Shown here piece by piece: positions 11,060 through 31,730 of a DNA stretch of 64,000 nt. Position numbers and translations under genes: made by a program. Position 1 is the stretch's first letter, and every line of letters begins with the position of its first letter. This DNA comes from Escherichia phage vB_EcoM_G2540-3. Below the pieces are notes generated by a model that did no database searches, was not told the origin of the DNA, and saw only the letters and a program-made list of their open reading frames with translations. Where the stretch lies: the sequence record MK327944.1; one strand, 5' to 3'.

Positions 11060-11530
11060 TTAATCATGTTTCCACACCCCATCGGTATTTGACCAAAGTC
11101 GCTGATTATCTGATCCTCGCCACAGCTTTTTAGTCGGAAGATTTTTCTCATACTTCCCATCAATAATAACATCAACATATTTAAGCATTTCTAGTTGTTT
11201 AATATCTTCAAACTTATATCCTGTCCACAACCAGATATCTTTCTCCGGAAATCTTGCTTTAACCCAAGAAACTAAATTTGAAATCTCTTCTCGGTTCTGT
11301 GGATAAAGTGGGTCACCACCGGTTAAGGTAAGGCCTTGGATATACGATTTGCTTAAATGGGACGCAAGTTCTTTAACGGTATTCATAGTGAATAACTGTC
11401 CGTTACGAGCATTCCAAGTACTACGATTATAACAACCTTCGCATTTATGCAAACATCCAGTGACGAAGAGAACGACCCTACATCCAGGGCCGTTAACGAA
11501 ATCGCATGGATAAATTCTATCATAATTCAT
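11060..11530 (-). CDS. nrdG: Anaerobic ribonucleotide reductase activating protein NrdG (radical SAM), 156 aa
   Basis: Start at MNYDRIYPCDFVNGPG (same N-terminal pattern as E. coli NrdG MNYHQYYPVDIVNGPG); CxxxCxxC radical-SAM cluster motif CLHKCEGC; GGDP motif. Confidence 0.85.
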   Translation of the reverse strand: MNYDRIYPCDFVNGPGCRVVLFVTGCLHKCEGCYNRSTWNARNGQLFTMNTVKELASHLSKSYIQGLTLTGGDPLYPQNREEISNLVSWVKARFPEKDIWLWTGYKFEDIKQLEMLKYVDVIIDGKYEKNLPTKKLWRGSDNQRLWSNTDGVWKHD

Positions 11531-12152
11531 CTTTATATTTCCAAGTATATCCCTTATGAATAGATTGAATTCCTTTGCAACATTTATAAACAGCAGAATG
11601 AAAAAATCCTGCATTTCTTATTTCAGTTGCTCCAGTTAGTTCTATTGTATTTCCGTCTGGTGAATAGCCAATAACCGTTTTGGTGTTAAAGCGATTTCTA
11701 GAACTATTTTTGATATGCTCTTTATGATTAGTAGACAAAGTTCTTCCTGTTAGCCCATCAGATATCCTTTTTCCAAAATCATCAGGAAGAGTTACTTTAG
11801 ACCTAGCTATGCTCATTAGCTTCTTAGTTTTATCGCTTCTTTTTGCGCCACGCTGATTTTCAAATTTCTTAGCTTTTGCATACGCGTATTGTGAAGAAGT
11901 AACTTTTCTATGCTTACTATTACTCATTATCCAATATGCATCATACATCTTTCCACCATATATTTTAGCCAATAAATGGTGAGCAGTATAGTGGGCCTTA
12001 TAAGTTAAAAATACTAAGTTGTCTAAATCATCTGAACCACCCATACTTCTTGGAATTATATGATGAAGTTCATACCCGGCTTTAGTTTGACGGGGCTTAG
12101 ATGGGTGTTCAGCAGAATTAACTAGATTTGAATAGATTCTGTCATAATTCAT
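11520..12152 (-). CDS. HNH homing endonuclease-like protein (Mob family-like), 210 aa
   Basis: HHIIPRSMGGSDDLDNLVFLTYKAHYTAHHLL motif block shared with the other Mob-like ORFs in this window; sits between nrdD and nrdG, overlapping nrdG start. Confidence 0.7.
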   Translation of the reverse strand: MNYDRIYSNLVNSAEHPSKPRQTKAGYELHHIIPRSMGGSDDLDNLVFLTYKAHYTAHHLLAKIYGGKMYDAYWIMSNSKHRKVTSSQYAYAKAKKFENQRGAKRSDKTKKLMSIARSKVTLPDDFGKRISDGLTGRTLSTNHKEHIKNSSRNRFNTKTVIGYSPDGNTIELTGATEIRNAGFFHSAVYKCCKGIQSIHKGYTWKYKDEL

Positions 12153-13966
12153 TGGTGTTTAACCCTATGCATGATTTCTTTGTTTTTACCGAGATTAAAT
12201 CCGCGTTCGTTCGGATTTCCCAAATAACCACATGTTCTTCTTATTGTGTTCATCTTTTTAGGATCAGTTTCTCCACAAATAGAACAAACAAATCCGTTTT
12301 CAGTAGGAGTCATTTCATGGGTACTTCCACATGTAAAACATTTATCTACTGGCATATTAACACCAAAATAATCTAAATGTTGTGCAGCATAATCCCATAC
12401 AGCCTCAAGACCCTTTAAGTTATTTTTCATATCAGGAAGTTCAACATAAGAAATGTGACCACCTGTCGCAATGAAATGATATGGCGCTTCACGAGAAATC
12501 TTTTCAAACGGAGTAATATTTTCTTCTACTGAAACATGGAAACTATTAGTGTACCAGCCTTTATCGGTAACATCTTTTACACTTCCATATTTTTCTGTAT
12601 CAAGTTTACAGAAGCGATAACAAAGGTTTTCAGCAGGAGTCGAATATAAACTAAAAGCAAATCCGGTTCTTTCAGTCCACTGTTTAAGATGAGCATTCAT
12701 TTTAGTTAAAATTTCTTGTCCAATATCACGACCGACAAGAATATTCAATTCGTGAATACCAATGTATCCTAAAGACACTGAACTTCTACCGTTTTTAAAT
12801 AACTCAATTATGTCGTCATCAGGTTTAAGACGAACCCCGAATGCACCTTCTTGGTAAAGAATAGGAGCAACAGTCGCTTTAACTCCTTTTAAGGAACTAA
12901 TTCTACACATCAAAGCTTCAAAACATAAATCCATTCGTTCATTAAATAGCTCAACAAATTTCTGTTCATTGAATTGTGTTCCAATATAAGAATCTAACGC
13001 GATGCGAGGAAGATTCAGTGTTACAACACCAAGATTATTACGTCCATCAAGAATTTCATTACCAGTCGAATCTTTCCATACGCTCAAGAAACTACGGCAA
13101 CCCATCGGAGAAACAGGAACTGAAGAACCGGTAATAGCTTTATTGTTCTTAGCTGAAATAATGTCAGGATACATTCTTTTGCTTGCGCACTCTAGAGCAA
13201 GCTGTTTAATATCATAGTTCGGATCGTCTTTATAAAGATTAACACCTTCTTCAACGAACATAACAAGCTTAGGGAAAATAGGAGTTATCCCGTCACGACC
13301 AAGACCTTTAATACGATTTTTCAGAATTGCTTTCTGAATCATTCGTTCAGTCCAGTCAGTTCCCGTACCAAATGTAATTGTTACAAAAGGCGTTTGTCCG
13401 TTTGAACTAAAGAGAGTATTTACTTCATATTCATAAGCTTGGAATGCATCGTATACGTCTTTTTCTGTTTTAGACTGGGCGTAATTCAACGCATCAGCGA
13501 TTTGCCATTTTTCTGCATCTTCAATATGTTTTGCATAGGTGCGTTTAACATAAGGAGAAAGTACTTTGTCTACATTCGCAAAAGTCGTTCCACCATATTG
13601 ATGGGAAGCAACCTGTGCAGTAATTTGTGCCATAATTGCAGTAGCAACACCGATTGATTTAGGAGTTTCAATCTGTGCATTACCAAGCTTAAATCCGTTC
13701 TCAAGCATTCCTTTTAAATCTACTAAACAGCAATTAGTAAATGGAAGAGCAGGGGAATAATCAATATCATGGAAATGGATAATTCCGCTTTCATGCGCTT
13801 TCATAATAAAAGACGGGACCATATTTTTGGCAATGTGTTTAGACACAATACCAGCCATAAGGTCCCGTTGAGTTGGAAAAACACGAGAATCTTTATTAGC
13901 ATTCTCGTTCAAAAGGTCTTTATTAGTTTTATGAATCAATCCTTCAATTTCTTTTTCAATTGTCAT
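12149..13966 (-). CDS. nrdD: Anaerobic ribonucleoside-triphosphate reductase NrdD, 605 aa, uninterrupted
   Basis: 605 aa; C-terminal Zn-ribbon CFTCGSTHE...CSICGETD and glycyl-radical motif RRTCGYLG; single continuous ORF (no intron). Confidence 0.9.
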   Translation of the reverse strand: MTIEKEIEGLIHKTNKDLLNENANKDSRVFPTQRDLMAGIVSKHIAKNMVPSFIMKAHESGIIHFHDIDYSPALPFTNCCLVDLKGMLENGFKLGNAQIETPKSIGVATAIMAQITAQVASHQYGGTTFANVDKVLSPYVKRTYAKHIEDAEKWQIADALNYAQSKTEKDVYDAFQAYEYEVNTLFSSNGQTPFVTITFGTGTDWTERMIQKAILKNRIKGLGRDGITPIFPKLVMFVEEGVNLYKDDPNYDIKQLALECASKRMYPDIISAKNNKAITGSSVPVSPMGCRSFLSVWKDSTGNEILDGRNNLGVVTLNLPRIALDSYIGTQFNEQKFVELFNERMDLCFEALMCRISSLKGVKATVAPILYQEGAFGVRLKPDDDIIELFKNGRSSVSLGYIGIHELNILVGRDIGQEILTKMNAHLKQWTERTGFAFSLYSTPAENLCYRFCKLDTEKYGSVKDVTDKGWYTNSFHVSVEENITPFEKISREAPYHFIATGGHISYVELPDMKNNLKGLEAVWDYAAQHLDYFGVNMPVDKCFTCGSTHEMTPTENGFVCSICGETDPKKMNTIRRTCGYLGNPNERGFNLGKNKEIMHRVKHQ

Positions 13967-26514: not shown

Positions 26515-26732
26515 GTAACCTTTAAGCAGTATTCTTCTACATGCTGTTTACGACCTTTCTTATCAATAAAGGTATATTCAACGAATGTTCCAATGTAGTC
26601 TTTATCTACATCATGCGGACTATTAATTGGACATTTAGTACGGCAAATGCGTTCCCATTGACGAATAATTACTGCCTTATTCTTTGGGTCATATGGATGT
26701 GGATAATGTATATTCATAATAACGGTTCCCAA
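26505..26732 (-). CDS. Hypothetical protein, 75 aa
   Basis: ORF. Confidence 0.4.
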   Translation of the reverse strand: MGTVIMNIHYPHPYDPKNKAVIIRQWERICRTKCPINSPHDVDKDYIGTFVEYTFIDKKGRKQHVEEYCLKVTWL

Positions 26733-27181
26733 TCAACAATCACAATTTCTAATTTAGAGGAATATGTATCTAAAATCCCCTCAATAATATCCCAGTTCCC
26801 TTTACCTATGCCTGCACCAATCCTAGGCATATAGATTGTAGGTTTAATCAGTTTATTTTCACCAAACTCATTTAATTCTAACATACAATTCATTAAAGCG
26901 GAATACTCAAAATTTGGCCCTGGTTGAAATTGAGTATAAAGGTTGAAGCAATACGCTTTATGAGTCCTAAAATATTTTTCATAGACTGAGTAAGAACCGA
27001 GTTTAGTTACATCACCCCATTCAGTCTGTAATTTATCAGCTTCCAAAATTTTAGGGAAAGCTTTGGTTAATTGACCCGCTACGCCTGAACCCATAGTATG
27101 AAAACAATTGCATCCATGCGCAATATTTTTACCTTCAGCGAAAAGGGCGACAATATCGCCCTTGATATATTTTACAATCAT
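26714..27181 (-). CDS. Macro domain (ADP-ribose binding/processing) protein, 155 aa
   Basis: Macro-domain-like N-terminus KGDIV...NIAHGCNCFHTMGSGVAGQL. Confidence 0.55.
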   Translation of the reverse strand: MIVKYIKGDIVALFAEGKNIAHGCNCFHTMGSGVAGQLTKAFPKILEADKLQTEWGDVTKLGSYSVYEKYFRTHKAYCFNLYTQFQPGPNFEYSALMNCMLELNEFGENKLIKPTIYMPRIGAGIGKGNWDIIEGILDTYSSKLEIVIVDWEPLL

Positions 27182-28585: not shown

Positions 28586-28906
28586 TTATTCTTTAAATCT
28601 AATCAATTTATTCATAGACTTTGTAACTTCTGCACGAACCTCATGTAAGTTTTTAAGCTGTTCAAGACTTTGCTCATAGTAAGCAATTTCATCTTCTTCG
28701 AGGCAGTCCTGTGAATCTTCTTTAAGATAACGTGCATAGTCCTGGAAAGCTTTACGGACTACTTCCTGGAAGTCATCAAGACTTTGAATTTTCTTAGGAG
28801 CAACAGATACACGACGAGGGGCAGTATAATACTCATAACCAAACCCTGCGCTTAATTGAGCCATTAGTATTTTTCCTCTGGTTGGAACACTGCGCGACAA
28901 GCCCAC
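28586..28906 (-). CDS. Hypothetical protein, 106 aa
   Basis: ORF. Confidence 0.4.
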
Positions 28907-29130
28907 ATACTGGCTTCTTTGAGTTTCGTTTTAGCAATAGTTAACTGATCGAGGCTTTCGGCGTAATTCTTCGCGAGTTCATCATCTTCACAGCTATCAA
29001 ATGCTTCCCAGAATTCATCATATAAAGCATCAAAGATAAGCCCTAAACGAACTTCAGCATCTTTGATAGCATTCACTTTACTGATTTTATCGTCAGTATG
29101 TGGTTTATAACCTTTAATGTCTTCAATCAT
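28864..29130 (-). CDS. Hypothetical small acidic helical protein, 88 aa (positional candidate for vs.4/Acb2-type protein)
   Basis: ORF; candidate only by position in regB-denV interval. Confidence 0.35.
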
Positions 29131-29344
29131 ATTTTACTTCCTCACCTGTTCCCAAATCATATTCAACTAAACGAATAGGTTCATGAATGCCATATCCTTG
29201 AACAGAAATTTCTGTCGTAGGATAAATTCCATTAATATCACCCATGTTCCATGCTTCGTTAAATTGCTGTTCGCCTGAATTACTAAACCACTCGGCGAAA
29301 GCATTTAGCACATCTTCAGAACCTTCAATAATTATCTTTGCCAT
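29123..29344 (-). CDS. Hypothetical protein, 73 aa
   Basis: ORF. Confidence 0.4.
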   Translation of the reverse strand: MAKIIIEGSEDVLNAFAEWFSNSGEQQFNEAWNMGDINGIYPTTEISVQGYGIHEPIRLVEYDLGTGEEVKYD

Positions 29345-29706
29345 TACAAACTCTCGGTGAAGGTACGAGCGATAACGTCGCGCTGCTGTTCCGGAGTCAG
29401 AGAGTTAAAGCGAACTGCATAACCGGATACACGGATGGTCAGCTGCGGATATTTTTCCGGATGCTTAACTGCATCTTCCAGAGTTTCACGACGCAGAACG
29501 TTAACGTTCAGGTGTTGACCACCTTCAATTTTAACTGTAGGCTGTTGCTCAATTTCAATTTCACGGGCATGCAAACCATAGAAAATTTCTGGGTCTACAA
29601 AAGAGTCCTCTTTAAAGGTTTTAGAGACAATAATTCGTGCTTGAATACCATCTTCAAAATAAATAGTACCTTTATGTGTGCCTTCAAGAATTTGATATGC
29701 TTTCAT
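29344..29706 (-). CDS. Autonomous glycyl radical cofactor (GrcA/YfiD-like), 120 aa
   Basis: C-terminal glycyl-radical domain [28 protein letters not shown]. Confidence 0.7.
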
Positions 29707-29712
29707 ATAACC

Positions 29713-30093
29713 TCAATTAGAAAATAAATTTATCCAAGATTGTTCTTTAATTAAAAATGGCTCAGAATCATATGCCATTAAACTCTGTGTGATTAGTCCT
29801 TTAAAAGGCCCATCAATAAATTCCATGGTAAAATATGGAATTTTATTCATTAGCCGTGCATTAGGAGCCGTGCACAAAACTCTGCATCCTTTGAATACGC
29901 CTTTTTGTAATTTGTATTGCTTGGGATAAAATTCGCTCAAAATGTTATTTTTTGCCAAAATTTCAAAATGATTCACCAATTTATTTTTAATAGTTTTTGG
30001 CGAAAAATAAAGATATTCGAAAAGCTGAGTGTCTGTCATCATTGCATTCCGATTACGAAAAACTGTGGACGAGTAATACCACCAATGCAACAT
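29713..30093 (-). CDS. Hypothetical protein, 126 aa
   Basis: ORF. Confidence 0.4.
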   Translation of the reverse strand: MLHWWYYSSTVFRNRNAMMTDTQLFEYLYFSPKTIKNKLVNHFEILAKNNILSEFYPKQYKLQKGVFKGCRVLCTAPNARLMNKIPYFTMEFIDGPFKGLITQSLMAYDSEPFLIKEQSWINLFSN

Positions 30094-30626
30094 TTAATAT
30101 TACAGCAGCAGTGTACAGTGTCAATATGGACACTATAAATCTTATCCATATCAGGAGATTTGACAGGCTCATCAATTATATACAAAATTCGCGAAAGCGA
30201 TAAACCTCTGAACTTGCTTCCTTTATTACCAATAAAACTGCGCACAGAATCAGTAAATAAACGAAAACGTATATCATCATTAGAATAACGCGAAAATTCC
30301 TTTTTAATATTATCTGCGGAAATTTTAGCGTAAGCTGAAGTATTAGAAAGAACAATAACTGTTCCACCGTCATACAACCAATTAGCGGCAAAATTAGTTA
30401 CTGCAGTTGATTTACCAGATTGACGCCCACCATCTAGTCGAAGTGTACAATACTGTTTAAGTAAGTCTTCAAATGGCGGGATATATTCGTTTTTACAAAT
30501 TTCTTCTACTCTAGCATCAGAATGGTGTGTAAAAGCATTCATCAGGGATAGATAAGGACCAGTTAAAAATGTTCTCATTTTGTTCTCTCTAGGTTTGGGC
30601 CATTCCATGGCGCATGAATTGTCCAT
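30039..30626 (-). CDS. Hypothetical P-loop protein, 195 aa
   Basis: Walker A-like GGRQSGKST. Confidence 0.45.
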   Translation of the reverse strand: MDNSCAMEWPKPRENKMRTFLTGPYLSLMNAFTHHSDARVEEICKNEYIPPFEDLLKQYCTLRLDGGRQSGKSTAVTNFAANWLYDGGTVIVLSNTSAYAKISADNIKKEFSRYSNDDIRFRLFTDSVRSFIGNKGSKFRGLSLSRILYIIDEPVKSPDMDKIYSVHIDTVHCCCNIKCCIGGITRPQFFVIGMQ

Positions 30627-30723
30627 TTCTGTATTTACCCATTACCGCACTTGGGCTCGACCTTATTACAGGTTGGCGGGAATCCCTCACAGAATCATGA
30701 GGTCCAGGTTATTCCCATGTTAT

Positions 30724-31140
30724 TTAAATGTAAATATTTTTGCCGTAATACTTATACCAGTGTGGCTTCATTAAAATTTTTTCATCGAGTCGTTGTTGAC
30801 TCAACTTAATAGCTGATTTGCATGGATTATAATCATTTTTCCATTCTACTGGAATATCGCTGATGTCAGGAACTTCAGTATCTTTTATACTGAACCCGCG
30901 TTTTAAGCATTCCGTTATAATGTCCGATTGACGCTTTCGCAAAAATTCTAACTTATCGTAAAAGAAAGTAACATGACCAGAACCTAAAATAAATTTAGAA
31001 GATATTTTAAAATCTTTAACGCGCTTACCGTTTGCCACATGCTTACGAACTATACCAAAAACACGCGGCAATTCACGGTATTCTGCGATTAAATGTTGAT
31101 CAGCAAGTTCAGATACTAAAGTCAAATTAATACGAGTCAT
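30724..31140 (-). CDS. denV: Endonuclease V (pyrimidine dimer DNA glycosylase), 138 aa
   Basis: 138 aa; [17 protein letters not shown]...[10 protein letters not shown] matches recalled T4 endo V with scattered substitutions. Confidence 0.9.
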
Positions 31141-31164
31141 TTTATCCCTCCAAGTAACTGTGAA

Positions 31165-31196
31165 TATACTATCACAATTCTAGGAGAAAGTAAACA
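31165..31196 (-). promoter_or_regulatory. T4-type early promoter upstream of denV
   Basis: Minus strand GTTTAC... TAGTATAT. Confidence 0.45.
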
Positions 31197-31199
31197 ACT

Positions 31200-31730
<531 letters not shown>

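Follow-up and report, generated by a model that had tools for sequence, protein, structure and literature searches.

The vs.6 gene and its surroundings

The window, by which we mean the whole stretch of DNA analysed here, comprises 64,000 nt of Escherichia phage vB_EcoM_G2540-3 (MK327944.1). The gene vs.6 (Y06I) lies on its minus strand, and its open reading frame runs from an ATG at 29706 to a TAA at 29346-29344 and codes for 120 amino acids. The features of this gene are the following.

29344..29706, minus strand: coding sequence of vs.6 (Y06I), 120 aa plus stop, a GrcA/YfiD-type autonomous glycyl radical cofactor
29711..29714, minus strand: Shine-Dalgarno sequence GAGG of vs.6, seen in the letters themselves 4 nt ahead of the ATG
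29530..29706, minus strand: codons 1-59, the AT-rich N-terminal half of phage type, a distant homologue of the N-terminal half of GrcA
29360..29528, minus strand: host-identical tract, gene nt 179-347, codons 60-116, 169 nt that are 100% identical to E. coli grcA DNA
29422..29424, minus strand: codon of Gly95, the predicted radical site, at the RVSGYAV position in the GrcA and PflB alignments
29344..29359, minus strand: last 16 nt including the stop codon, a tail of phage type that differs from E. coli grcA at 5 positions, all synonymous, and marks the 3' edge of the tract

The GAGG overlaps the TGA stop codon of the preceding gene, vs.7, and the stop codon of vs.6 overlaps the start of the next gene in the sequence TAATG, so that vs.6 is a tightly packed member of a minus-strand gene cluster. 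The number of consensus promoter and terminator sites around vs.6 is not above that found in shuffled sequence. In phages AR1 and T4 the order of genes is e ... vs.8, vs.7, vs.6, vs.5/vs.4/vs.3, regB, vs.1, vs, tk.

The ORF is a gene of Tequatrovirus. Its DNA is 100% identical to that of the Escherichia phages Pinarejo and REP2; with T2 and AR1 the identity is 99.2%. T4 vs.6 (NP_049730), which RefSeq names "autonomous glycyl radical cofactor GrcA", differs by 6 nt and 2 amino acids (118/120 residues are identical), and 1,506 phage records match the gene. As a gene call, vs.6 therefore adds nothing to what has been known since 2001: the original prediction treated it as a novelty, which is not correct, since the gene is annotated and has been studied experimentally in T4. 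The labels given to vs.6 in phage records include hypothetical protein, pyruvate formate-lyase, 2-ketobutyrate formate-lyase and acetyltransferase-related, and the family is listed as being of "unknown function" in PHROG 1209.

Several neighbours of vs.6 are worth a remark in their own right. Two genes downstream, an 88-aa ORF (28864..29130, minus strand) matches the Pfam family Acb2_Tad1_hairpin (E 1.4e-19); we take it to be T4 Vs.4/Acb2, an anti-CBASS cyclic-nucleotide sponge. The 155-aa ORF at 26714..27181 (minus strand) corresponds to T4 tk.4, whose annotation is that of a phosphatase carrying an A1pp motif (macro-domain). The product of vs.8 (30039..30626, minus strand) has a weak match to the ATPase family AAA_14, below the cutoff (E 0.0024). 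Between e and vs.8 the gene content is variable, as seen when window positions 30626..31200 are set beside L003 and L001: there is only denV in the window phage, denV-ipII-ipIII in T4, and Ip4 without denV in AR1.

The window also codes for an anaerobic ribonucleotide reductase and its activase, as the original prediction had stated.

12149..13966, minus strand: nrdD, anaerobic ribonucleotide reductase, an uninterrupted 605-aa ORF (Pfam NRDD 1.7e-171, Gly_radical 1.2e-25)
11060..11614, minus strand: longest ORF of the nrdG activase (Pfam Fer4_12 3.4e-50, Radical_SAM 1.6e-7), with the domain starting from residue 40

The true start of nrdG is probably internal to this longest ORF. Within 11060..13966 (minus strand), nrdD and nrdG are separated by an ORF coding for an HNH endonuclease (11520..12152), which overlaps nrdG in its longest form. 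While nrdD is uninterrupted in the window, that of T4 is split by a group I intron. The idea that vs.6 is carried along with nrdD and nrdG is right at the level of the whole genome, but it does not hold as linkage, since these genes are 15-18 kb from vs.6, with many genes in between.

The two halves of the vs.6 protein

The product of vs.6 is a small protein that stands alone, in the size range of the GrcA/YfiD family (about 120-130 aa), and it has a ribosome-binding site, a start codon and a stop codon to itself. It ends in a glycyl-radical domain, as predicted originally: the ORF, the peptide quoted in that prediction and a match to Pfam Gly_radical (PF01228) over residues 60-101 (E 2.5e-18, 67 bits for a cutoff of 22.2) all confirm it. 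The best match among solved structures is 6OWR, the NMR structure of E. coli GrcA (E 9e-42, residues 22-120 aligned with 28-127), and the C-terminal 61 residues (60-120) are identical to residues 67-127 of E. coli GrcA/YfiD, so the description as a GrcA-like stand-alone cofactor was accurate. The alignment to GrcA that had been proposed as a check has the radical glycine in place: G95, in the motif RVSGYAV, aligns with G102 of GrcA and with G734 of PflB, so that the condition named as refuting the prediction, a missing radical glycine, does not apply. The C-terminal radical domain, the RVSGY motif and the radical glycine typical of GrcA/YfiD (IPR011140) are thus all present. Residues 58-120 also align with residues 697-759 of PflB (E 5e-26), with 49 of the 63 positions identical by hand count (78%).

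The N-terminal half is different. The NCBIfam equivalog model TIGR04365 matches vs.6 with an E-value of 1.2e-45 and 154.9 bits, which is under its cutoff of 170 bits, because the N-terminal half has diverged; residues 20-120 alone are aligned. When the N-terminal halves of the phage protein and of host GrcA are compared on their own (hhalign), homology is detected in the profile-profile comparison with a probability of 85% (E 6e-6) over 46 columns, at 33% identity. The N-terminal part of the phage protein is 7 residues shorter than that of GrcA, and across 8 T4-like phages 25 of its 59 columns are invariant.

This division follows the structure of the host protein. Residues 61-127 of YfiD fold like residues 693-759 of PFL, whereas residues 1-60 are disordered, yet required for binding cleaved PFL and for efficient installation of the radical (Andorfer et al., PMC8683613). 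The diverged half of the vs.6 protein corresponds to the disordered half of YfiD, and the 169-nt tract that is identical to host DNA encodes most of the structured radical domain.

Host-identical DNA in the radical-domain half of the gene

According to an ungapped alignment from the stop codon and to the longest common substring, nt 179-347 of vs.6 match E. coli grcA at 169 of 169 positions. Upstream of the tract, the identity drops at once to 17-50% (30-nt windows), and the edges lie at nt 178/179 and 347/348. The GC content is 0.337 in the 5' half of the gene and 0.492 in nt 179-363, compared to 0.348 in the window. Excess DNA identity, sharp edges and a shift of composition, which characterize a conversion tract derived from the host, are therefore all found in vs.6.

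The whole window was compared by megablast with 5,426 complete E. coli genomes. Positions 1-22000 and 42900-64000 have no match in these genomes, and in the middle third of the window the best place in each of the 5,426 genomes is the vs.6 tract; the second place per genome is presumably pflB. No other part of the 64-kb window has a match to E. coli that could be identified. The 3' half of vs.6 is 82% identical to that of Salmonella, 90% to that of Citrobacter amalonaticus and 85% to that of a Klebsiella sp., while the tract is 100% identical to E. coli, which shows that the donor is E. coli itself. The transfer of the tract in the opposite direction, from phage to host, was considered and rejected: the divergence of E. 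coli grcA from its Salmonella, Citrobacter and Klebsiella counterparts is even across both halves, the composition step is in the phage gene, and the tract has the GC content of the host.

Similar observations, with another host, are made in T4-like phages of Klebsiella (Jiaodavirus). The identity of their copies to the tract of the window is 86-88%, and the host genes of E. coli and Klebsiella are the same distance apart. The tract of the Klebsiella phage is 96.6% identical to K. pneumoniae grcA, versus 86.9% to that of E. coli; here the K. pneumoniae reference was taken from a mis-filed chromosome in PLSDB (ung-grcA context), and Klebsiella phage JIPh_Kp122 was used in place of the IMG/VR locus L109 (KPV15), whose record has a frameshift. 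The segments compared are as follows.

29360..29528, minus strand, in the window, with L165:901-1070 and L164:602-786: host-tracking radical-domain half of vs.6, E. coli versus K. pneumoniae grcA copies

The E. coli and K. pneumoniae genes differ at 21 sites between nt 179 and 347. At all of these (21/21) the window phage has the E. coli letter, JIPh_Kp122 has that of K. pneumoniae at 17/21, and the two amino acids specific to the hosts are distributed likewise (ETLEDAVKH versus ETLLDAVEH). The 5' halves of these two phage genes, on the contrary, are 74% identical to each other, and their identity to either host is at the random level. RB69-like phages and Tequatrovirus have the E. coli type of the allele, while that of K. 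pneumoniae occurs in Jiaodavirus: the identity to the K. pneumoniae tract is 95-99% in 106 records of Klebsiella phages and 85-88% in E. coli phages. In independent lineages the donor is thus the species that the phage itself infects, and this is documented for two host species. We found no tract specific to Citrobacter, Salmonella or Enterobacter in the phages, the best matches merely reflecting the E. coli tract.

The edges of the tract are also informative. The 5' edge, at nt 178/179, is common to both genera, and it is there that the homology between phage and host ends. The 3' edge is at nt 347 in the window, 350 in L084, 353 in AR1 and 356 in T4; in JIPh_Kp122 it is at about nt 300. The terminal sequence GAGAGT(C/T)T(A/G)TAA is common to the genera that were not converted, and is therefore ancestral in the phages. 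The genes of the window phage and of the RB69-like phage L089 were compared at codons that specify the same residue: in the first half (codons 1-59), 12 of 53 such codons have a synonymous change, whereas among codons 60-116 there is one in 57 (Fisher p 0.0007). The E. coli allele in the window phage, the K. pneumoniae allele in the Klebsiella phage and the contrast with L089 together mean that no fewer than two independent transfers from host to phage are required. For the E. coli phages one also needs either conversion more than once or the spread of a converted allele by recombination between phages; the two alternatives are inseparable here.

One may try to explain the tract without recombination, as an artefact of assembly or contamination, or as a single ancient capture that selection has preserved. 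It is true that the protein sequence of the radical domain is very strongly constrained in all relatives. However, this constraint is insufficient to account for identity in DNA: in the T4-like phages L095-L097 the last 44 residues are the same as those of the window protein, while the DNA is about 83% identical. From our own arithmetic, the chance of 169 consecutive matches at 83% per site is of the order of 1e-13. The copies of CC31/PG7-like phages (Karamvirus), of RB43/RB16 and of KP15-like phages (Slopekvirus) are 77-83% identical to E. coli grcA DNA over the tract; over the 3' 186 nt they reach at most 84% identity to any sampled host grcA, and they have no host-identical tract. An artefact would not be expected to lie in frame with phage sequence on both flanks, nor to recur, at 95% identity or more, in 637 independent phage records that include T4, T2 and AR1. 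The nested 3' edges and the Klebsiella allele of the Klebsiella phages also speak against an explanation without recombination, which we consider so improbable that it deserves almost no weight.

We consider it likely that vs.6 is instead a hot spot of recurrent gene conversion from host to phage, in which the DNA of the radical domain is overwritten by the grcA gene of the infected species. If so, the protein would be kept matched to the PflA and PflB of the host, and a gene of a lytic phage would evolve in concert with its host homologue. The tract is a clean and datable case of chromosomal DNA that enters lytic phages which contain hmC and destroy the DNA of the host; in two genera it follows the species of the host, and its extent is that of a structural domain. 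With watermarked grcA alleles one can measure directly how often such conversion occurs and what its selective value is. No description of a mosaic or of conversion in vs.6 was found in the searchable literature, which did not extend to Wagner et al. (2001) or to the review of the T4 genome, so that a prior mention is possible. The host-tracking conversion tract is a real side observation, which may not have been described before.

Some records call for separate comments. The loci L153-L163 were excluded as phage homologues, because their tail is of the PflB type TFTQSM, or one of its variants TFTQTM and TFTKSL; they are probably the 3' ends of host pflB genes on contigs that flank prophages. 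OR584013, a 165-kb genome named "Pseudomonas phage PsgM02F", has the E. coli tract at 98.4% identity, an odd host label for a Tequatrovirus-like genome. In PP355766, the 288,685-bp genome of Klebsiella phage vB_Kpn_AM_K4, the grcA tract is 96.4% identical to that of K. pneumoniae.

Candidate targets and comparison with known systems

The biochemistry of the T4 protein has been published. T4 Y06I and YfiD both receive a glycyl radical from PFL activase, and PFL that has been cleaved by O2 regains activity in the presence of either of them (Knappe lab, Wagner et al. 2001, PMID 11444864, as reported in passages of PMC8683613). In the same passages, YfiD and T4 Y06I are the only validated spare-part proteins for glycyl radical enzymes (PMC8683613). 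The activation of the window protein by PFL activase and the reconstitution of PFL by this protein are supported by analogy, as properties carried over from the near-identical T4 protein. In E. coli, the route of the radical is from G102 of GrcA to C419 of PflB (PMC12338860).

Two rescue targets had been put forward in the original prediction, host PFL and the phage's own NrdD. The former stands on the T4 Y06I biochemistry, the two proteins being 2 residues out of 120 apart, whereas the latter does not. If vs.6 were a spare part for NrdD, it would be activated by NrdG and replace the radical domain of NrdD cleaved by O2. NrdD and NrdG are indeed encoded in the same genome, both vs.6 and NrdD match Pfam Gly_radical, and the repair of other glycyl radical enzymes by some of the GrcA-like proteins has been raised as a speculation (PMC8683613). 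Nolan et al. (2006), who counted vs.6 as one of the 11 ORFs without a known function that T4 and five T4-like genomes have in common, also suggested a role in nucleotide metabolism, from the Pfam domain that it has in common with NrdD (PMC1524935). However, a spare part must mimic the piece that it replaces, and vs.6 does not mimic the C-terminal radical domain of NrdD. A BLASTP comparison of vs.6 with the NrdD of the window detects no significant similarity (best E 3.9). The radical region of this NrdD reads ...CSICGETDPKKMNTIRRTCGYLG..., with pairs of cysteines followed by RRTCGYLG; this Cys-rich motif is unlike the PFL-type loop of vs.6, from which RRTCGYLG is absent. The domain of vs.6 is entirely that of host GrcA and 78% that of the C-terminus of PflB, and the distance of 15-18 kb between the genes is a further point against this proposal. 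The rescue of NrdD, an idea that recurs in the literature as "nucleotide metabolism", is without support in sequence, and we regard it as highly improbable.

It could also be that vs.6 acts on the right enzymes in another manner, as a decoy or a regulator that binds host PflA, or intact PflB or TdcE, and redirects or dampens fermentation, or that it serves another glycyl radical enzyme of the host, such as TdcE. In favor of this, the N-terminal half, which in YfiD recognises cleaved PFL, is about 33% identical in vs.6, the protein scores under the cutoff of the GrcA equivalog model, and GrcA also acts in vivo on full-length inactive PflB (PMC12338860). On the other side, the T4 orthologue is reported to restore cleaved PFL (in the passages of PMC8683613 already cited), and the conserved radical glycine in a perfect host-type domain fits with productive use. 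A decoy or regulator is therefore improbable.

The proposal that we favor, and that we consider very likely, is that vs.6 is a spare part by which the phage restores host PFL damaged by O2, and that the DNA of its radical domain has been overwritten from host grcA by homologous recombination. Since this domain is that of host GrcA, and is the same as that of PflB at 49 of 63 positions, the piece that it mimics points to host PFL as the target, and to PflA as the activase. The mechanism would be as follows. While the host is anoxic or microaerobic, its activase PflA would make Gly95 of the vs.6 protein a radical. Once O2 has cut host PflB at Gly734, the phage protein would dock onto the cleaved enzyme, and its C-terminal domain would stand in for the radical loop that PflB has lost. 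The radical would then move to Cys419 of PflB, and pyruvate would again be split into acetyl-CoA and formate. The benefit for the phage would probably be that the fermentative supply of energy goes on under fluctuating O2 after the shut-off of host expression. By conversion, the phage would carry the exact domain that is recognised by the PflA and the PflB of its host.

The closest known system is T4 Y06I, an orthologue of 120 residues at the equivalent genome position, which also has a host-type C-terminal domain. It differs from the window protein by P54 and H73, in place of Q54 and R73, and by the extent of the E. coli-identical tract, which reaches nt 356 instead of nt 347. E. coli GrcA/YfiD (P68066, 6OWR) is likewise a stand-alone protein, of about 14 kDa, whose radical Gly102 lies in a segment identical to phage residues 60-120. 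Unlike in GrcA, the N-terminal half of the phage protein, only about 33% identical to that of the host, is encoded by AT-rich DNA and is 7 residues shorter, and the protein scores below the TIGR04365 cutoff. Another difference is that vs.6 is borne by a lytic phage, so that it would be expressed when host genes are shut off. The radical domain of PflB (1H16/2PFL) aligns with vs.6 residues 58-120, but vs.6 has neither the ten-stranded barrel nor the catalytic cysteines of PflB, and therefore is not an enzyme on its own.

The vs.6 genes of other T4-like genera and those of T5-like phages have the same architecture and the same radical motif. In the T5-like phages (L126-L151 in IMG/VR, contigs of about 104-122 kb), however, the GrcA-like protein has 122 residues and is about 53% identical to the window protein; the genes have no host-identical tract, and their DNA is at most 75% identical to any sampled host grcA.

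Last, mosaics between phage and host genes were reportedly described for psbA and psbD of cyanophages, by Zeidner in 2005 and Sullivan in 2006. That system resembles vs.6 in that a metabolic gene borne by a phage swaps internal segments with its host homologue. The gene, the host and the group of phages are different, and in vs.6, unlike in psbA and psbD, the tract coincides with one structural domain and tracks the host species.
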